DNA of 42,002 nt, taken from the IMG/VR virus record IMGVR_UViG_2563366918_000005; one strand, written 5' to 3'. The notes under the pieces are model-generated. The model worked only from the letters and a program-made list of their open reading frames with translations. It was not told the DNA's origin and made no database searches. Positions 3,810-27,864 of the stretch are shown here, piece after piece. The position numbers and the translations under genes are program-made. Every line of letters begins with the position of its first letter. The stretch's first letter is position 1. The DNA comes from a virus. Lineage: Duplodnaviria > Heunggongvirae > Uroviricota > Caudoviricetes.

Positions 3810-3972
3810 TTTTTTTGTACATATCGAACCTCTTCACTTACAGATCACCACACACAACAAACCATATATGTTTAACCATCAGATATTCTGAAATAACTAT
3901 CAATTCATTGGTTTTTGATGACAATATTCATAAACAACCATAAATGTAAGGCGGTTTATTAGTTGCCAAAAT

Positions 3973-6579
3973 TTATTTCCTGCAAACTCCAGATGATGTT
4001 AATCCATCAAAAATAACCTGCACTCTGGCAATAACAACATCAACTCCAGAAGTCGTTTCACTTGCATAACCAAGTTTTATTTTAGATACAATATCCTGAG
4101 TAAGTTCAGATATTTCAGTTTCTGCAATGTTACCAGAGGCCATGTGATTATCGTATGCCATAGAATGAATTCCATTATTGACATCGATTGAACTAGTATG
4201 TTTGTGAAAAATAGATGGGTTTACCTGAAACGAATTTGAACCGATAAGATCAGAATATACTCCATTCATCACTGCAGTACAGCGTGGAATATTATTATCG
4301 GTTATTGTCATATGCAGACGGTTACCAGTTAACCCCTCACCAAGTGTGACATAATACGCCAATTCTCCACCTGCATATTGTTTCCCCTCAACAATAACAG
4401 TAATCCCTCTTAATTTCTGATTAGCTAGCAAAAACTTATTACTGTCTATATAGCATTTATTTGCGGAACCAAAAACAGCCCCTTCTAAAATATCTGATGA
4501 ATAGGAATAAATAAGGTCACCTGAAACAAAGGAAAGAATATCAGATACGTTTCCTTTTTTAGATAAGTTAGGAGAATAGCTATTAACTATTTCATATTGT
4601 CCTGTGATAAAATCAAGGTAAACGCCATCAGTTTTCATCTCTTTAAAGAAAATGCTATTAAAGCATCCATCAAGAACCGGTGGATATATTCTAGAGCTTG
4701 CATAAGCTGTTGGGTGATTCTTATTATTACCACTACCAGGCGAATAAACATCTTCGTTAGTCATTGACTTTTTAAGCTTAACAGGAATCATCGGCTGCAT
4801 ATCAATTTTGCAGTTCCCTGAACCACCGATGCGAGGATAAAATAAACCACCAAACCTTACAATATTACTACTGAATAGTATTTCGTTATCGTTAAGTGTT
4901 ATCTCAACGAAGTTTCCAATAAGTTTAAATTCAACTGAAAACAAACCAAGTGGAGCAGATAATTTAACAATATTGCGCATAAAAACACCTACAGTCCCTG
5001 TTGATGCAGTATAGTGTGTGGTTTCAAAGGCAGAGCCTGTATATTTCAAGTTAATGAAATTATTATGGTATGAAGACAATTGAAATTGAATCCCAGAACT
5101 AAGGATTTCAATATCTACAAATTGAATCCTTACGGAGTAAGCATATGATAAATCTTCATATTCATAAGGCAATGTAACATCTTTTGAAATAGTTGCCCTC
5201 ACATAATTACCAGAAACCACATCAATCCCATCACGTACAGCATTAAAGTAACGATTAAAATCAATAAGCCCAGCGCCAACATACTGCGCATATGACCGAG
5301 TCCATCCTGCCATTGCGTTTCGTCCATTCTGAGCTTCTAAACTGCTAAATTCAGAGTCACTTGTGGTACTTGATGGGAGGATATTTGTACAAAAAATAAT
5401 TTCAGGCATTGAAGTAATATCATTCAGTTCAGCCATCAATTTAAAAAAAGTTTTCTGCGGGAAGTTACCAACATCCCAACCATCTCCGTCATTCATGCCA
5501 AAAGCAATAATAACAACATCAGGGTTAATATCACGAATGTAATCAATCCAGCGTCTGTTCGTGTCTGAATACCATGGGTACTGTGAGTTATAAGAAGTAA
5601 TTGCTGGTGTATCTTTTCCAAGGTCATAGTACCTCATTCCACCAATTGCTCTGTTAAATAAAGTAGAACTTGGGAATTTCTCTTGCAAAACTCTCTTAAG
5701 ATGAGCGGCAAAAATGCTTGATCGATCCACTGTGCTTATATTATATGGGGCACTTAAGCTGTCACCAACTAACACTATTTTTGAGTTAGGCCTTGATAAT
5801 CTCTCAAGTGTTTTAGATGTGACTAAACTGCAGGAATTAATGAACTGAGTACTATTTAGCATCTGTTCAAGTGTATCACCAAATCTGGTACCAACGTATG
5901 ATGATCCGTTGACACTTGCTAGCTTAAGGCATAAATCAGCAGTATCTGTAATTGAAAAAATAGGAACAGGACGTCCTAAACTGTCATACCCCTGAATTGA
6001 GTTTGCCCTAGAAGATGCTGATGCCATTTCGCTTACTATCTCAGGGAAGCGGAGTGTTTTAGATATGTTGCTGTTAATAACTCCTTTGATAGATGAGTCT
6101 GTATATTTCTTCGTGGAAGCGTCCTGAGGAAATAATGGATCATCAAGGTTACGAATACGATTGCCGAGTGCATCGTAGTAAGTGGCACTAAATGATGGTT
6201 TACGAAGAGCCAGCCGAGCCATGCTTTTGACTAACTGGATCAGCATCGTTAGCTTATCAAAAGCATCCTCATGCACTTCCGCAAAGAACTTACCCTGATT
6301 GCGCAGATCAGTTTCCTGTGTAACCGGTAGCTCTCGTGATATAGAAATCTTATAGCCATTGGCCAACGCCTTCGACAATATTACATTTCCACCATTGTAT
6401 CCTCCGGCCCCGGTAACTATATAATCAGTATCAAGAGTCAGTACGGTGATATTTTCATGAATATCAACAACCTGCACAATCAAATCAGATTTATTGAAAA
6501 CCCTAAAGGCATACGGAAACGATGTCGTAACGCCGTTACCGGTGTATTCGTTGTGGTCAACTTCGGTTGAGACCGTCAT
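3973..6579 (-). CDS. tailspike / tail fibre with conserved N-terminal adaptor domain, central SGNH (GDSL) esterase-like domain and C-terminal beta-rich modules
   Basis: 868 aa. N-terminal ~155 aa (MTVSTEVDHNEYTGNGVTTSFPYAFRVF) resembles podovirus tailspike head-binding domains. SGNH blocks: KIVLVGDSLS (aa 267-276), AIGGMRY (aa 311-317), IIAFGMNDGDGW (aa 357-368). GC drops sharply below ~6100. Confidence 0.8.
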   Translation of the reverse strand: MTVSTEVDHNEYTGNGVTTSFPYAFRVFNKSDLIVQVVDIHENITVLTLDTDYIVTGAGGYNGGNVILSKALANGYKISISRELPVTQETDLRNQGKFFAEVHEDAFDKLTMLIQLVKSMARLALRKPSFSATYYDALGNRIRNLDDPLFPQDASTKKYTDSSIKGVINSNISKTLRFPEIVSEMASASSRANSIQGYDSLGRPVPIFSITDTADLCLKLASVNGSSYVGTRFGDTLEQMLNSTQFINSCSLVTSKTLERLSRPNSKIVLVGDSLSAPYNISTVDRSSIFAAHLKRVLQEKFPSSTLFNRAIGGMRYYDLGKDTPAITSYNSQYPWYSDTNRRWIDYIRDINPDVVIIAFGMNDGDGWDVGNFPQKTFFKLMAELNDITSMPEIIFCTNILPSSTTSDSEFSSLEAQNGRNAMAGWTRSYAQYVGAGLIDFNRYFNAVRDGIDVVSGNYVRATISKDVTLPYEYEDLSYAYSVRIQFVDIEILSSGIQFQLSSYHNNFINLKYTGSAFETTHYTASTGTVGVFMRNIVKLSAPLGLFSVEFKLIGNFVEITLNDNEILFSSNIVRFGGLFYPRIGGSGNCKIDMQPMIPVKLKKSMTNEDVYSPGSGNNKNHPTAYASSRIYPPVLDGCFNSIFFKEMKTDGVYLDFITGQYEIVNSYSPNLSKKGNVSDILSFVSGDLIYSYSSDILEGAVFGSANKCYIDSNKFLLANQKLRGITVIVEGKQYAGGELAYYVTLGEGLTGNRLHMTITDNNIPRCTAVMNGVYSDLIGSNSFQVNPSIFHKHTSSIDVNNGIHSMAYDNHMASGNIAETEISELTQDIVSKIKLGYASETTSGVDVVIARVQVIFDGLTSSGVCRK

Positions 6580-6682
6580 GTTAAATCTCCAGATAGTCGC
6601 AGCACCCGTTGCGCCGCATATCTGGTTATTCTATTACCTGAAAAACCATATATGTATAGAAAGACTATAAATACCAATAGAT

Positions 6683-6699
6683 ATTACCTTTATGGTAAT
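6683..6699. promoter_or_regulatory. 17-bp palindromic operator ATTACCTTTATGGTAAT (perfect)
   Basis: Member of the WTTACC-N5-GGTAAW family. Lies in the divergent region between tailspike (-) and the SOS-boxed gene (+). Half-site ATTACC also at 6633. Confidence 0.7.
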
Positions 6700-6716
6700 T
6701 TGCAAAACGTGCTGGA

Positions 6717-6753
6717 TAGCAAACAAATTATTTGATACTGTATAAATATACAG
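6717..6753 (+). promoter_or_regulatory. SOS-regulated promoter: LexA box TACTGTATAAATATACAGTT (core CTGT-N8-ACAG 6738-6753) overlapping a TATAAAT -10
   Basis: Matches the consensus TACTGTATATATATACAGTA at 18/20 positions. -10 TATAAAT at 6741-6747, SD GGAG at 6763-6766, ATG at 6775. Confidence 0.85.
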
Positions 6754-6774
6754 TTATTGCATGGAGAAGATAAG

Positions 6775-7032
6775 ATGCAGCGGTATCACTATCCACTGGA
6801 AGACGGATTTACCGAAAGGATTCACACGCCGGGAGGCGTCAGGTCACTGGTGGAGGGATCGCACTTGATGAAATTACTCCGGGATCTCGATAAGGATGGA
6901 TTTAATGTCGATGGCCCACTTGCCGAACTGACTGCACTGATTAACTACGTCACCAGCTCACAGATGTCTATGCGGGATCTGCAAACACATCTCGACTATT
7001 GTGCCGAACAATTACGAAAACAAACCAGATAA
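6775..7032 (+). CDS. small LexA-controlled protein, candidate antirepressor (paralog of the Bro-N protein C-terminus)
   Basis: 85 aa from MQRYHY (GGAG 8 nt upstream; the TTG at 6757 is less likely). Residues HTPGGVRSLVEGSHLMKLLRDLDKDGFNVDGPLAELT...MRDLQTHLDY align with HSPSGVLGLTENSLLMNLLNQLQEDGHDVSGAAAELT...LRDIQTHAEY of the 7347-8039 product. Confidence 0.7.
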   Translation: MQRYHYPLEDGFTERIHTPGGVRSLVEGSHLMKLLRDLDKDGFNVDGPLAELTALINYVTSSQMSMRDLQTHLDYCAEQLRKQTR

Positions 7033-7062
7033 GGTTTGCAATTACCAAGTGGAGTGCTTATA

Positions 7063-7079
7063 TTTACCTTTGAGGTAAA
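7063..7079. promoter_or_regulatory. 17-bp palindromic operator TTTACCTTTGAGGTAAA
   Basis: Same family. Nested between the 7-bp inverted repeats GGAGTGC (7051-7057) and GCACTCC (7088-7094). A weaker neighbour lies at 7041-7057. Confidence 0.6.
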
Positions 7080-7172
7080 TTTACATCGCACTCCTCTTGT
7101 GCCATAGTAATCGGGCACTGGCAAAATCCAGTGCCGGGATTGGTCTCCCGGATTACTACAGAGGCACATATG

Positions 7173-7192
7173 CCGCATAAGCGGTTTTTTTT
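7173..7192 (+). terminator. probable rho-independent terminator (short stem, U8 tail)
   Basis: CCGC-ataa-GCGG followed by TTTTTTTT (7185-7192). The stem is only 4 bp, so strength is uncertain. Confidence 0.45.
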
Positions 7193-7346
7193 ATGTGTAA
7201 AGCGCACCTATTCTATGGTGGGCTGTGTGGGGGCACCGAAAGGTGCGCCGGGTTCCTTTGTAGCCGGTAAGACCAACTCTGCACAGTTCACCACCATCTG
7301 ATTGGTCTCAGCGGTGGTGATTAACCTAACTACAAAGGTGATCGCC

Positions 7347-8039
7347 ATGAATACCAAACCTTCCATCTTTTCCTTTGAGTCATCCTGCCAGATCCGTATG
7401 TTCATGATTGACGGAGAACCTTGGTTTGTCACCAAAGATGTGTGCAATGCTTTGAATATTGATGTTACACAAGCGAGAAAACTTGATAAAAAAGGCTGGA
7501 ACAAAAAGGGGCTGTATTCAATACAGACCCCTGGTGGAATACAAGAACTATCCATCGTTTCAGAATCAGGTCTCTACATCCTTATTCTGCGTTGCAAAGA
7601 GGCAATGACTGAGGGAACGAGAGCATTCAGATTTCTTGAATGGGTTACAGGCGAGGTTCTTCCTCAGATCCGCCGCACCGGAAGTTACATTAAAAACTCG
7701 CTACCGCAGGAAGAACGCATAAAGATGGTTGCCGACCAGGTAGCCAACGCCACGGCGTCAGCAGTAATGCAGGCGATGAAGATAGAGAACAAAACCTACA
7801 ACGCCCCGCTGAAGCCCGGCTACCGCAGCCTGATTCATTCCCCGTCTGGTGTTCTCGGCCTGACGGAGAACTCACTGCTGATGAATCTGCTGAACCAGTT
7901 ACAGGAAGACGGGCACGACGTATCGGGCGCGGCGGCGGAGCTGACCACCATGTTCTGCTACATCGTCGGTGTGAGCAAATGCCTGCGTGATATCCAGACG
8001 CACGCGGAGTACATCAACGACAAAGCAGGGTTCTTCTGA
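7347..8039 (+). CDS. Bro-N domain antirepressor-like protein
   Basis: 230 aa from MNTKPSIFSFES (SD AAGGTGA). N-terminal Bro-N signature (IRMFMIDGEPWFVTKDVCNALNI ... ESGLYILILR ... FLEWVTGEVLPQIRRTGSY). C-terminal ~70 aa paralogous to the 6775-7032 product. Confidence 0.8.
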   Translation: MNTKPSIFSFESSCQIRMFMIDGEPWFVTKDVCNALNIDVTQARKLDKKGWNKKGLYSIQTPGGIQELSIVSESGLYILILRCKEAMTEGTRAFRFLEWVTGEVLPQIRRTGSYIKNSLPQEERIKMVADQVANATASAVMQAMKIENKTYNAPLKPGYRSLIHSPSGVLGLTENSLLMNLLNQLQEDGHDVSGAAAELTTMFCYIVGVSKCLRDIQTHAEYINDKAGFF

Positions 8040-8103
8040 CGGGCGGCGGCACAGGGATGTGCCTTTAAATAATTCTGTACAGATTGCAGGTGAATAGCTT
8101 ACT

Positions 8104-8120
8104 ATTACCTCACGGGTGAT
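8104..8120. promoter_or_regulatory. operator ATTACCTCACGGGTGAT with candidate -35 TTGCAG (8084-8089)
   Basis: One mismatch in the right half-site. Spacing to the TTGCAG hexamer resembles the 25615 promoter/operator arrangement. Confidence 0.55.
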
Positions 8121-8207
8121 CCATAGCGATTAGGCACCGATACAGGAGGAGCCCACATGAGAAAATTTGACGAGTACGAAGGCGTTTAACATTCGGATAG
8201 TTTAATG

Positions 8208-8230
8208 ACGGGGCCATTAGGCCCCGTTTT
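8208..8230 (+). terminator. rho-independent terminator
   Basis: ACGGGGCC-atta-GGCCCCGT followed by TTTC. Sits 18 nt upstream of the GTG start at 8249. Confidence 0.7.
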
Positions 8231-8248
8231 CATGTCTGGAGACAGTTT

Positions 8249-8788
8249 GTGTTAAGTGAAGAAATGCAATTTGCCATGGCTGTGGCTCAAATCGTAAGTG
8301 CAGTCGCGGTTTCGCTTGGCTTGTTCATAGCTATCGCTACTATTATTTATAATGTAAATACAGCGAGAAAAGTACACACTTCAGTATTCCTTGGTGAAAG
8401 CAGGTTTGATGTAGATTATAAGAAAGGCCTATCTACTATGCGCCGCATTCACGAATCGAACAAATCATTCCGCTCTTATATGTATCCAAGCAATGGGCAG
8501 GCTGATCTTACGGATGAAGAAAAGACAGAGAAGAGAGAAATAATTTACTGTCTAGGTTTCTACGAACGCATGGCTGTGAGCGTGAAGCGGAAAACTTATG
8601 ATGAGACCATGATTAAGGAAGTATTTTACAGCTCCGTTGTAAATAACTATCAGATTGCGCTACCTCTTATACAAGCCATTAGAGAAAAAGAAAACATAAA
8701 CACATATTTTAAAGAATATGAATGGTTGGCCACACGATGGAAGGATTGCCCATTGAAGGATAAATCCCCGTGGTACAAGTTTTGGTAA
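8249..8788 (+). CDS. N-terminally membrane-anchored moron protein (resembles DUF4760-type proteins; from memory)
   Basis: 179 aa with GTG start and GGAG 7 nt upstream. Single TM helix AVAVSLGLFIAIATIIYNV, then a soluble domain. AT-rich. Flanked by its own terminators (8208-8230, 8789-8810). Confidence 0.7.
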   Translation: MLSEEMQFAMAVAQIVSAVAVSLGLFIAIATIIYNVNTARKVHTSVFLGESRFDVDYKKGLSTMRRIHESNKSFRSYMYPSNGQADLTDEEKTEKREIIYCLGFYERMAVSVKRKTYDETMIKEVFYSSVVNNYQIALPLIQAIREKENINTYFKEYEWLATRWKDCPLKDKSPWYKFW

Positions 8789-25973: not shown

Positions 25974-26050
25974 GTGGCATTAGCTCAGTTGGACAGAGCA
26001 ACCGCCTTCTAAGCGGTTGGTCGCAGGTTCGAATCCTGCATGCCACGCCA
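25974..26050 (+). tRNA. tRNA-Arg (anticodon UCU, reads AGA)
   Basis: 77 nt. Acceptor GTGGCAT/ATGCCAC, D-arm GCTC/GAGC, anticodon stem ACCGC/GCGGT with loop CTTCTAA (TCT at 26008-26010), T-arm GCAGG-TTCGAAT-CCTGC, discriminator G, encoded CCA. Resembles E. coli argU. Confidence 0.93.
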
Positions 26051-26269: not shown

Positions 26270-26551
26270 ATCATGAAAAACTTCAAGGTAATTAGCATGT
26301 TTGAATCGTTCAAAGAGCTGTTTTTATCTACTGCCAATACTGCCGTGAATCGAGCCAAAAACCCTGTGCTTGGTGCTTTTGTTATGTCCTGGTGCGCCTT
26401 CAACTGGAAATCAATTCTTTATCTATTTTTTAGCAAATCAAACATAATAGATAAAATTTCATATATCTCAGATAACAGCACATGGAAAACTGTTATGTTT
26501 TATCCATGCTTATCTGTAATTGCTATCTGCTGCCTAGGTAATGACTCCAAC

Positions 26552-27055
26552 TTACTGATAGTGTTTTATGTTCAGATAATGCCCGATGACCTTGTCATGC
26601 AGCTCCACCGATTTTGAGAACGACAGTGACTTCCGTCCCAGCCTTGCCAGATGTTGTCTCAGATTCAGGTTATGCCGCTCAATTCGCTGAGTGTAACGCT
26701 TGCTGATTACGTGCAGCTTTCCCTTCAGGCGGGATTCATACAGCGGCCAGCCATCCGTCATCCATACCACGACCTCAAAGGCCGACAGCAGGCTTAGAAG
26801 ACGCTCCAGTGTGGCCAGAGTGCGTTCACCGAATACGTGCGCAACAACCGTCTTCCGGAGCCTGTCATACGCGTAAAACAGCCAGCGCTGGCGCGATTTA
26901 GCCCCGACGTATCCCCACTGTTCGTCCATTTCCGCGCAGACGATGACGTCACTGCCCGGCTGTATGCGCGAGGTTACCGACTGCGGCCTGAGTTTTTTAA
27001 ATGGCGGAAAATCGTGTTGAGGCCAACGCCCATAATGCGGGCGGTTGCCCGGCAT
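26552..27055 (-). CDS. insB: IS1 InsB reading frame (expressed as InsAB-prime by -1 frameshift)
   Basis: 167-aa ORF with ...[21 protein letters not shown]...[11 protein letters not shown]..., recognised as IS1 InsB. Confidence 0.93.
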
Positions 27056-27249
27056 CCAACGCCATTCATGGCCATATCAATGATTTTCTGGTGCGTACCG
27101 GGTTGAGAAGCGGTGTAAGTGAACTGCAGTTGCCATGTTTTACGGCAGTGAGAGCAGAGATAGCGCTGATGTCCGGCGGTGCTTTTGCCGTTACGCACCA
27201 CCCCGTCAGTAGCTGAACAGGAGGGACAGCTGATAGAAACAGAAGCCAC
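26974..27249 (-). CDS. insA: IS1 InsA
   Basis: 91 aa [43 protein letters not shown]..., recognised as IS1 InsA. Confidence 0.95.
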
Positions 27250-27864
27250 TGGAGCACCTCAAAAACACCATCATACACTAAATCAGTAAGTTGGCAGCAT
27301 CACCTGCTGCCTATTACCATGGGTAAACAATATCATTAACGTATGGCAAGCAAAGCCTCTTGATAATAATGACTCAATCGAAAATCACCTGAAGGCAAGA
27401 AAAATCCAGCGTGAAACAAGACTGCAGAGGTTATTGGCTAAAAAAGATGTTACATACGACAAAGTTAAGACTGGCGCGGAAAAAGACATCCAAGAGATGA
27501 AAGAAGAGATTATTCGATCAAAGAATAGTATGGGGGAATTGACTGCCGAGTTGAAAGCTAAAGATGACGAATTGAGATCCGCCAGTGCTCAGTTAGCAGC
27601 TCTAAATCATTCATTAAAAGAGATATCGGAAACTCTTGGAAGAATGAATGAGGCATATAAGACCCTCCAAAATGATTTCGACGAATACAAACTCAAATAC
27701 CCTGAAAAATCTCAAATAAAAAGCCTTGAACTTGGCAACGGCCAAACAATTAGCAACTTTTTGGAGCAACACAACTTATCCGGATTAAAATCTGGTAAGC
27801 CAAACGTTTTTAATAACTTTGGTGTTCTATCTGGATTATCAGGTTTCGAGGATAAAAATAAAGA

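Follow-up and report, generated by a model that had tools for sequence, protein, structure and literature searches.

A tailspike with a predicted carbohydrate esterase head in an epsilon15/phiV10-type prophage of Escherichia coli

The single tailspike encoded by a temperate podovirus of the epsilon15/phiV10 type has no beta-helix depolymerase and very probably bears, as its enzymatic part, a carbohydrate O-acyl esterase. The DNA analyzed here (the window; 42,002 nucleotides) represents a Uetakevirus-like prophage of this type, inserted into E. coli at guaA; the copy in the window is disrupted by IS1. Its sole gene for a tailspike, or receptor-binding protein, is the listed open reading frame at 3973..6579 on the minus strand (ATG start, 868 amino acids plus stop). 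All features described below lie on the minus strand and are given in window coordinates.

Results

The spike gene is flanked by a lysis cassette on one side and by tail/injection genes on the other. PHROG 17220 matches the 868-residue protein over its full length and tail-protein PHROGs match its N terminus; an NCBIfam scan of the protein gave no match. A gene 100% identical to it in E. coli NZ_AP022222 is annotated "SGNH/GDSL hydrolase family protein," the product name assigned by PGAP (NCBI). At DNA identities of at least 99.5%, the gene recurs, identical or nearly so, in 37 of the 5426 complete E. coli genomes; in another E. coli, a prophage of this type has a second, allelic SGNH spike in the corresponding position. 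Scanning for promoters and terminators around the gene yielded none exceeding shuffled expectation, and PADLOC returned nothing among the opposite-strand genes adjoining the spike. Phage BP9 was considered as a relative and rejected: its 99.7% match is a fragment beside an integrase, a lysis cassette, and an IS2 gene within a 138-kb Vequintavirus record, an arrangement that suggests either chimeric assembly or capture of host DNA.

Profile and structural analyses confirmed that the spike belongs to the SGNH/GDSL hydrolase superfamily. Pfam PF13472 (Lipase_GDSL_2) matched above threshold (E = 2.4e-9; 38.4 bits versus a gathering cutoff of 32.9 bits). The AlphaFold2 model of aa 235-868 (mean pLDDT 89.8, pTM 0.84), whose core was reproduced by the full-length model, shows an alpha/beta/alpha SGNH fold with a parallel five-stranded sheet. 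The first part of this fold (aa 262-451; 5227..5796) spans strands beta1 to beta5 and blocks I to III and ends in RDG. In the full-length model, a strand at residues 267-272 lies immediately ahead of block I (VLVGDSLS, aa 269-276; 5752..5775), where alignments place the predicted nucleophile, Ser274 (codon 5758-5760). Block II (AIGGMRY, aa 311-317; 5629..5649) and block III (FGMNDG, aa 360-365; 5485..5502) supply the predicted oxyanion-hole residues Gly313 and Asn363, respectively. The open reading frame and all three blocks are thus exactly where the first-pass annotation had put them. That annotation had also proposed an SGNH esterase core, to be given up should searches find no SGNH fold or no catalytic Ser/His pair; the fold is found, and the pair Ser274/His622 is present and conserved. 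Searches of the PDB with phmmer and the family profile detected no solved homologue of the esterase part, the phmmer matches falling in the anchor only.

Conservation was assessed in alignments of 38 and 56 sequences and over 190 aligned rows, the latter comprising the hits of both alignments plus the best 150 of an all-against-all search. G272, D273, S274, G361, M362, N363, and D364 did not vary in either the 38- or the 56-sequence alignment, and G313 was kept in at least 90% of their rows. Over the 190 rows, conservation was 0.98 for S274, 0.89 for G313, 0.98 for N363, and 0.96 for H622. An ordered signature drawn from the alignments as a working definition of the family, GDS...G[MW]ND...xDGxD...116-210 aa...NH, is complete in the spike and in 133 of 187 family representatives. 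At E ≤ 1e-10 the family numbers at least 286 sequence clusters; those with the best scores are ∼500 to 1100 aa long, the length of receptor-binding proteins. When contigs were scanned with a single FGMND-based pattern, mostly generic SGNH genes with blocks I to III only were recovered (Planctomycetota and others), together with one true family member, from Pantoea.

The first-pass annotation saw no clear block V. However, a His motif is present at aa 617-624 (GNNKNHPT; 4708..4731), with His622 (codon 4714-4716) as the candidate catalytic residue from alignments; a ConA-like beta-sandwich of ∼153 aa, inserted into the SGNH fold just ahead of it, had concealed it. Both the models and Pfam place this loop in the second part of the SGNH fold (aa 605-645; 4645..4767), which also contributes the last helix; in both models a helix at residues 625-641 comes after the His622 loop. 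G617, N621, and H622 were invariant in 38 sequences and conserved at 0.93 to 0.96 over the 190 rows. The residue three positions before the His is Asn619, so the spike has no D-x-x-H. Of 133 family members, 102 have Gly at this position, 9 have Asp, and 2 have Asn. Since accepted SGNH members such as CE2 and a Streptomyces scabies esterase likewise have no functional Asp (PMC9487903), its absence does not exclude membership of the superfamily, and Ser-His dyads and noncanonical triads are established among SGNH enzymes (PMC9487903, PMC12313940). Going by the aligned sequences, in which the active esterase gp66 of phage Possum and 102 of the 133 members have Gly here, the missing Asp does not appear disqualifying. 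His622 may be polarized by Asn619 or by Asp450/Asp453, or may act unaided as part of a Ser-His dyad.

Asn619 in place of Asp nevertheless raises the possibility that the SGNH domain has lost all or nearly all catalytic activity and serves as a scaffold, and that the spike is purely a lectin-type binder acting through its two ConA-like domains. The presence of two lectin-like domains would fit such a protein, and infection by epsilon15 does not require its petal esterase, which is slow (bioRxiv 10.64898/2026.07.31.742079). However, conservation of Ser274, Gly313, Asn363, and His622 at 0.89 to 0.98 implies selection on catalysis; the SGNH part, and not the lectin domains, is the best-conserved segment of the spike; and Possum gp66, which is active, also has no Asp at this position (PMC9569702). 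We therefore regard a dead scaffold as unlikely and favor a catalytically competent esterase, probably acting as a trimer.

The first-pass annotation had also described two beta-rich lectin-like modules following the esterase. Both are real ConA-like/LamG/galectin-like jelly rolls, but the first is inserted inside the esterase rather than placed after it. This ConA-like/LamG-type beta-sandwich (aa 452-604; 4768..5226) was delimited from the models and Foldseek; the segment E452-E601 is all-beta in both AlphaFold2 models, and the insertion is occupied in 96% of the family (190 rows). It bears a conserved loop, RFGGLFYP (aa 575-582; 4834-4857), in which G577, G578, and P582 are conserved at 0.89 to 0.93. 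The C-terminal ConA-like/lectin-type beta-sandwich (aa 650-862; 3994..4632), the most variable part of the spike, is a probable glycan-recognition domain. In Foldseek searches the insertion and the C-terminal domain aligned jointly to tandem galectin/LamG pairs.

Deleting the insertion in silico allowed both Pfam GDSL models to reach their C-terminal ends (173/178 and 203/208). In both models, RDGID (aa 449-453; 5221..5235) sits where helix 441-450 ends, immediately ahead of the opening strand of the insertion, and it takes the position of the canonical SGNH D-G-x-H. Over the 190 rows D450 was conserved at 0.91 and D453 at 0.97, making both candidates for the third catalytic residue. A tentative reading, less likely than not, is that the family is a structurally undescribed SGNH subfamily in which block V, D-G-x-H-P, is split by the ConA-like domain and the acid and base come from the stems of the insertion: Asp450 (RDGID) and His622 (NHPT) would flank the ∼170-residue insertion on its N- and C-terminal sides, respectively, and the insertion loop RFGGxFxP would complete the active site, coupling glycan recognition to catalysis. 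In a Pfam splice test, DGI joined to HPT scored best (46.8 versus 44.9 to 45.4 bits), a margin of only ∼2 bits that gives the split weak support.

The spike is mosaic, as first proposed, and its N-terminal particle-attachment domain is likewise borne out. Residues 1-234 (5878..6579) form an epsilon15 gp20-type particle-binding arm, with 67% identity (E = 1e-92) to aa 1-234 of an epsilon15-type gp20. In phmmer searches of the PDB, chain 28lx_A (the N terminus of the Dpo31 tailspike) matched aa 1-164 (E = 6e-24), and 9m4c/9m4d matched aa 135-232. The arm is poor in the full-length AlphaFold2 monomer model (pLDDT 30 to 60), presumably because a trimeric arm was modeled as a monomer. The DNA encoding aa 1-145 (6145..6579), a segment delimited by megablast ends and GC content, is alignable with that of other Uetakevirus-type spikes, and phage DNA matches, which include the E15, TL-2011b, and PAS61 spikes, are confined to it. 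Nested recombination breakpoints fall at approximately 6464, 6235, and 6145, near aa 39, 115, and 145 (megablast match ends at query positions 337/338, 566, and 655/656 of window:5680-6800 on the minus strand). It is at these breakpoints that DNA similarity to ∼500 other E. coli prophage spikes ends, spikes annotated as beta-helix, GH28-related, or endosialidase proteins.

GC content falls along the gene from 0.437 (aa 1-145) through 0.404 (aa 146-234) to 0.359 (aa 235-868), compared with 0.493 in the rest of the window, and the spacer at 3810-3972 (0.301) prolongs the AT-rich stretch. The drop and the AT-rich run to ∼3810 reported at first pass are therefore real. The N-terminal part, described there as host-like in GC, does exceed the remainder of the gene, but at 43.7% it falls short of the 49% found in the DNA around it.

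Downstream of the arm, a short helical linker (aa 235-261; 5797..5877), helical in both AlphaFold2 models, marks the start of a portable module. Residues ∼235-868 recur at ∼40% identity behind the anchors PF18668, PF12571, and PF03906, and alignments with homologues on other anchors start at core residues 2 to 20. The module is present on at least five phage chassis: it occupies the tail-fiber slot of a P2-like Aeromonas prophage and is found in a Kayfunavirus, a Phapecoctavirus, and N4-like Cbunaviruses. These sequence comparisons show that it has been exchanged between phage types in modular fashion.

Among the predicted viral structures of BFVD, the strongest Foldseek matches were phage anhysbys (E = 3e-77) and the Possum tail spike (E = 5e-32, 578 columns). 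BLASTP aligned the spike to Possum gp66 over aa 258-648, the esterase-plus-insert unit, at 27% identity (E = 5e-34; tblastn, E = 2e-25), and the alignment spans GDS, GG, FGMND, RDGxD, the insertion, and GGNGINHP. On this sequence homology, which extends from the first SGNH part through the insertion to block V, the spike can be assigned to the Possum gp66-type group of esterase modules. Possum gp66 was shown by NMR to remove the 2-O-acetyl group from rhamnose of the host O-polysaccharide (PMC9569702), and homology to it lends indirect support to polysaccharide O-deacetylation by the spike.

These data are consistent with the following model. As in epsilon15 gp20, residues 1-234 would anchor the spike, presumably a trimer, to the tail, and aa 262-451 and 605-645 would form a single SGNH domain. 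Ser274 would serve as nucleophile and His622 as base, with the Gly313 backbone and the Asn363 side chain as oxyanion hole. The insertion (aa 452-604) would occupy the loop that normally bears block V and, together with the variable domain at aa 650-862, would hold a polysaccharide over the active site. The virion may bind an O-acetylated E. coli surface polysaccharide (O antigen, capsule, or other exopolysaccharide) and strip its acetyl groups, leaving the backbone uncut, as a first adsorption step of the kind described for Possum gp66 and G7C gp63.1. No beta-helix was matched by Pfam, and the models show the SGNH domain and two beta-sandwiches.

Two other activities were weighed. An active SGNH hydrolase could act on another substrate, either an outer-membrane lipid ester (as GDSL lipases/lysophospholipases do) or another acyl decoration. 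We consider this quite improbable: the top structural matches with a named, characterized activity are carbohydrate or peptidoglycan O-acetylesterases, two domains of carbohydrate-binding type flank the site, and the sole characterized homologue deacetylates O-polysaccharide (PMC9569702). The SGNH fold is also that of O-acyltransferases such as OatA, PatB, and AlgX, which would modify a surface glycan rather than hydrolyze it. That reading is very improbable, as esterases score higher among the structural matches, the characterized homologue is a deacetylase (PMC9569702), and an extracellular virion protein would have no obvious acyl donor. A carbohydrate O-acyl esterase thus remains the preferred assignment.

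Of the 37 carriers, at least 27 belong to one of two serogroups, with at least 6 in O15 and at least 21 in O102, whereas the two serogroups together account for ∼207 of the 5426 genomes. O15 and O102 are serogroups often linked with E. coli ST69 and ST405. This enrichment would fit a serogroup-specific O antigen (O15 or O102), rather than capsule or a cross-serogroup glycan, as substrate and receptor, and receptor-binding proteins of Uetakeviruses are often O specific (PMC10408124). However, the enrichment may merely mirror clonal inheritance, possibly of two lineages, and nearly the same spike (at least 99.5% DNA identity) occurs in strains with two different O-antigen clusters. Furthermore, receptor-binding proteins of some E. 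coli phages and prophages, one Uetakevirus among them, span several serogroups, for which a shared receptor such as capsule has been suggested (PMC10408124). No annotated acetyltransferase gene was found in the O15 and O102 O-antigen clusters of carrier strains, so that these loci give no sign of O acetylation of the O antigen. An O-specific target is accordingly plausible but, in our judgment, rather less than an even prospect; it concerns the target only. An association with one serogroup was rejected: carriers span at least two unrelated O serogroups, O15 and O102, and prophage residence therefore does not point to one receptor. A group-3-type capsule locus with an AlgX-like O-acetyltransferase, considered as a correlate, was present in only 9 of the 37 carriers.

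Discussion

A spike with an SGNH esterase head in place of a sugar-cutting beta-helix is a documented type and fairly ordinary. It represents no new kind of biology: the RefSeq name already reads SGNH/GDSL hydrolase, and a homologue has been biochemically characterized. The present case indicates that an E. coli epsilon15/phiV10-type prophage can bear an esterase-only spike replacing the depolymerase, in agreement with recent reports on Klebsiella and Acinetobacter temperate phages, and it illustrates the portability of one esterase module across podovirus, T7-like, N4-like, P2-like, and large-myovirus chassis. The family signature, GDS...GMND...RDGxD...insertion...NHP, is of practical use, since searches for a contiguous D-x-x-H or with full-length Pfam GDSL models truncate such proteins or miss block V. 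The spike, with its Ser274/His622 pair, is also a candidate for engineering or typing reagents against O15 and O102 strains.

Esterase spikes had been described at first pass as known from very few phages, but many are now documented: G7C gp63.1, Possum gp66, PP99, Aristophanes, Moo19/B2, and the epsilon15 gp20 petal, as well as receptor-binding proteins of many Klebsiella and Acinetobacter prophages (PMC13123978, PMC12115436, PMC11654681, bioRxiv 10.64898/2026.07.31.742079). G7C gp63.1 (Escherichia phage, PDB 4QNL), then taken as the reference example, is a more distant relative of the spike than Possum gp66. Its esterase domain has no sequence-profile homology to that of the spike by hhalign, in which the sole match was to the N-terminal anchor region of other family members. 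In gp63.1, unlike in the spike, block V is a contiguous, canonical D-T-T-H that no inserted domain precedes; gp63.1 also has a different anchor and acts in a branched two-spike complex. The spike thus shows neither of the traits, a homologous esterase and a contiguous D-x-x-H, that would define a gp63.1-type protein.

Gp20 of the Salmonella phage epsilon15 resembles the spike in virus type, in its particle-binding arm, and in carrying an SGNH esterase. Gp20 combines a beta-helix endorhamnosidase, a beta-sandwich, and a C-terminal SGNH "petal" with the canonical triad Ser787/Asp1035/His1038 (bioRxiv 10.64898/2026.07.31.742079). The spike differs in having no right-handed beta-helix glycosidase body; beyond aa 234 it has no similarity to gp20, the best local alignment of its SGNH domain with the petal giving E = 0.066. 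Also comparable are the Klebsiella and Acinetobacter prophage proteins, which are from temperate phages and in which an SGNH esterase replaces a pectin-lyase-like depolymerase (PMC13123978, PMC12115436); two of them are active on p-nitrophenyl acetate (PMC13123978, PMC12115436), and their host genera differ from that of the spike, E. coli. Among cellular enzymes, CE20 (PMC12313940) and CE2 with the Streptomyces scabies esterase (PMC9487903) also have a beta-sandwich set into the SGNH domain and contributing to the active site, as well as a noncanonical third catalytic position. However, these enzymes serve cellular polysaccharide degradation and have no sequence relationship to the spike family, and in CE20 D-x-H is contiguous after the insertion, unlike in the spike.

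Possum gp66 shares the most with the spike: the order GDS...GG...FGMND...RDGxD...∼170-200 aa beta-sandwich...GGNxxNHP, the lack of Asp three residues before the His, and the position of the enzyme in the distal part of a receptor-binding protein. The two differ in their C-terminal domains and in their anchors, which are of the TSP1/gp66 type on an adaptor protein in Possum and of the epsilon15 gp20 type in the spike. Possum is a virulent N4-like Cbunavirus of Pectobacterium that carries the module in a tail fiber, whereas the spike belongs to a temperate E. coli podovirus; of the two proteins, gp66 is the one with proven deacetylase activity.

Results

The spike gene (window positions 3973..6579, minus strand) is a single long ORF with an ATG start encoding 868 amino acids, and its translation places SGNH blocks I (VLVGDSLS, aa 269-276), II (AIGGMRY, aa 311-317), and III (FGMNDG, aa 360-365) exactly where the first-pass annotation had read them. 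The Pfam model Lipase_GDSL_2 matched aa 271-447 above the gathering score and ended at model position 155 of 178; because the match stops there, block V had escaped the first reading, which saw no clear copy of it. We found this block as GNNKNHPT (aa 617-624), in the loop preceding the last SGNH helix. Its residues G617, N621, and H622 were invariant across 38 homologues, and their conservation over 190 aligned rows was 0.93 to 0.96, with values of 0.98, 0.89, and 0.98 for S274, G313, and N363, respectively. Structure prediction, which had been proposed as a check, recovered the fold: AlphaFold2 modeled aa 235-868 from a 56-sequence input at pLDDT 89.8 and pTM 0.84. In the secondary structure of this model, SGNH strands beta1-beta5 carrying blocks I-III are followed by a helix with RDG at its end (aa 441-451), an inserted all-beta domain (aa 452-604), a short helix, a loop, the last SGNH helix (aa 625-641), and a C-terminal jelly roll (aa 650-862). 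When the insertion was deleted in silico, both Pfam GDSL models reached their C-terminal ends and their scores rose. With a complete SGNH fold and both members of the Ser/His pair in place, neither of the two observations that the first-pass annotation had named as refuting its reading was made. A full-length AlphaFold2 run reproduced the core with a poor N terminus, as expected for a trimeric arm modeled as a monomer. The two ConA-like jelly rolls in the model explain why tandem galectin/LamG pairs dominated the Foldseek matches.

The position three residues before the catalytic histidine (His-3), typically Asp in block V, is Asn619. Of the 133 family members that carry every element of the signature in order, 102 have Gly at this site, 9 have Asp, and 2 have Asn, so it is not a conserved catalytic acid. 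It is also Gly in gp66 of Pectobacterium phage Possum, an active O-polysaccharide deacetylase (PMC9569702), and there is good documentation of SGNH enzymes that use a Ser-His dyad or a water-mediated triad (PMC9487903, PMC12313940). The absent Asp is no argument for inactivity. Conserved acids are present at the foot of the insertion in an RDGxD motif (D450, 0.91; D453, 0.97), at the position of D-G-x-H in canonical enzymes. Joining DGI to HPT in silico recreated a canonical block V and gave the best Pfam score, by a margin of only ∼2 bits. We hypothesize that the inserted domain lies between Asp450/453 and His622. The only strongly conserved motif within the insertion is the family-wide loop RFGGLFYP (aa 575-582, window 4834-4857; G577, 0.93; G578, 0.89; P582, 0.93 over 190 rows). 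By analogy with CE20 enzymes, this conservation suggests that the insertion forms part of the active site or binding groove, and the loop may extend to the active site. As far as we found, a domain inserted at block V has apparently not been described in the literature.

The proposal that the spike is mosaic was upheld by both protein and DNA comparisons. Residues 1-234 share 67% identity (E=1e-92) with the first 234 residues of epsilon15-type gp20, and correspond to what is described for gp20 as a flexible phage-binding arm (bioRxiv 10.64898/2026.07.31.742079); the region also matches solved depolymerase-spike N termini and many "tail protein" PHROGs. At the DNA level, the 5' end is common to ∼500 E. 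coli genomes, with similarity breaking off in nested fashion around codons 39, 115, and 145, and in those genomes the downstream parts carry beta-helix, GH28-related, or endosialidase annotations. Residues ∼235-868 form a module that is found again, at ∼40% identity over 95 to 98% of its length, behind quite different anchors, namely TSP1/gp66-type (PF18668), P2-type tail-collar fiber (PF12571), and T7 fiber (PF03906). This module occupies the fiber slot of a P2-like Aeromonas prophage and is found in Phapecoctavirus anhysbys, a Kayfunavirus, and N4-like Cbunaviruses. In another E. coli, a prophage of this type has an allelic SGNH spike (Logan SRR13340274 contig, gene 6001-8562; 853 aa, ∼42% identical in the core) in the corresponding slot, indicating that esterase heads have been swapped among themselves in this lineage. 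That prophage shares the chromosomal site of the one described here, and an extra 103-aa ORF lies between its spike and holins. An anchor with exchangeable heads is the established organization of Uetakevirus receptor-binding proteins (PMC10408124).

The reported collapse in GC content within the gene is genuine: GC falls from 0.437 (codons 1-145) through 0.404 (codons 146-234) to 0.359 (codons 235-868), and the low-GC stretch runs on through the spacer at 3810-3972 (0.301). Calling the 5' part host-like was somewhat generous, since it is richer than the rest of the gene but falls short of the 0.493 of the window outside the gene.

Searching 1.84 billion cluster representatives all-against-all with HMMER yielded 492 family clusters at E<=1e-3; the number fell to 286 at E<=1e-10 and to 42 at E<=1e-30. 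Matches were mostly limited to the SGNH-plus-insertion unit, with the C-terminal jelly roll common to ∼22% of the 190 aligned rows. Within the close subfamily, identity was 52 to 59% in the SGNH part, 33 to 46% in the insertion, and 30 to 36% in the C-terminal domain, a gradient that would be expected if the catalytic core is conserved while the surfaces recognizing glycans diversify.

Over its first 26.5 kb, the window shows 99.996% identity to E. coli NZ_AP022222, in which the matching region is a ∼39-kb prophage bounded by guaA and yfgI/IS200. It encodes an integrase adjoining guaA, RecT-type recombination and replication genes, terminase, portal, capsid, T7-gp14-like core and injection proteins, the spike, two holins, a GH19 endolysin, and a spanin; this layout is that of an epsilon15/phiV10-type podovirus (Uetakevirus). 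An IS200C-family transposase gene (window ∼1219-1677; AP022222 annotation) lies between yfgI and the spanin end, and a prophage-borne tRNA-Arg (anticodon TCT, 25974-26050) lies between the terminase and portal regions. A 767-bp segment (26537-27303) is missing from the otherwise near-identical AP022222 prophage, so the copy in the window is not that of AP022222. The segment fits an IS1 element by size and by its minus-strand ORFs of 167 and 91 aa, and appears to interrupt a 272-aa hypothetical gene adjoining the tRNA.

Adjoining the spike gene is a variable region, an opposite-strand block (6757-8788, plus strand) that separates it from the tail/injection genes and encodes a 91-aa hypothetical protein, a BRO-N domain protein, and a DUF4760 protein. 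In some Uetakeviruses, the spike gene is followed by genes for O-antigen modification (PMC10408124); here, PADLOC returned no match for the block's genes, and no acetyltransferase or glycosyltransferase is annotated in the entire prophage.

The spike gene was detected at 99.6 to 100% identity in 37 of 5426 complete E. coli genomes, under the RefSeq name "SGNH/GDSL hydrolase family protein." We found the whole gene in no sequenced phage isolate. The 138-kb Vequintavirus record of Escherichia phage BP9 (PP488543.1) contains a block (125362-131681) 98 to 99% identical to the prophage, comprising integrase, methyltransferase, phosphatase, lysis cassette, and the final 320 bp of the spike gene, and ending at an IS2 gene. 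We rejected BP9 as a true spike relative, as the block looks like a chimeric assembly or captured host/prophage DNA.

AP022222 carries an O15 cluster, and the 37 carriers include at least 6 of serogroup O15 and at least 21 of O102. This enrichment could simply reflect clonal inheritance, and neither O-antigen cluster has an annotated acetyltransferase. Beside yghD, AP022222 has a group-3-type capsule locus (NZ_AP022222.1 813709-837236) with kpsD/M/T/E-like genes, three GT2 genes, an AlgX-related O-acetyltransferase, a sugar dehydrogenase, rfbBDAC, and kpsC/S-like genes. This content, including the rhamnose genes, suggests an O-acetylated rhamnose/uronic-acid capsule, but the full locus, present in 46 of 5426 genomes, occurs in only 9 of the 37 carriers. 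Some receptor-binding proteins of E. coli phages and prophages, including one from a Uetakevirus, have been noted across several serogroups, and capsule targets have been suggested (PMC10408124). Candidates for the receptor are a capsule, a common exopolysaccharide, and an O antigen whose acetylation depends on an unlinked gene.

Discussion

Esterase spikes had been described in the first-pass annotation as known from very few phages. That count is outdated: examples now include G7C, Possum, PP99, Aristophanes, Moo19/B2, and epsilon15 itself, and in receptor-binding proteins of Klebsiella and Acinetobacter prophages, SGNH is reported to be among the commonest enzymatic domains (PMC13123978, PMC12115436, PMC11654681). 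Judged by its sequence, the spike gene is probably a further member of this known kind with a recognizable subfamily signature. G7C gp63.1, the example offered earlier, shares the SGNH fold only: its SGNH domain has a contiguous D-T-T-H without an insertion before it, and it has no profile-level similarity to the spike family. The petal esterase of epsilon15 is unrelated in sequence to the spike SGNH domain. Possum gp66 is the closest characterized relative of the spike esterase. Its alignment spans aa 258-648 (E=5e-34, 27% identity) and takes in the insertion together with all the motifs; among the viral structural matches it ranks second, behind anhysbys.
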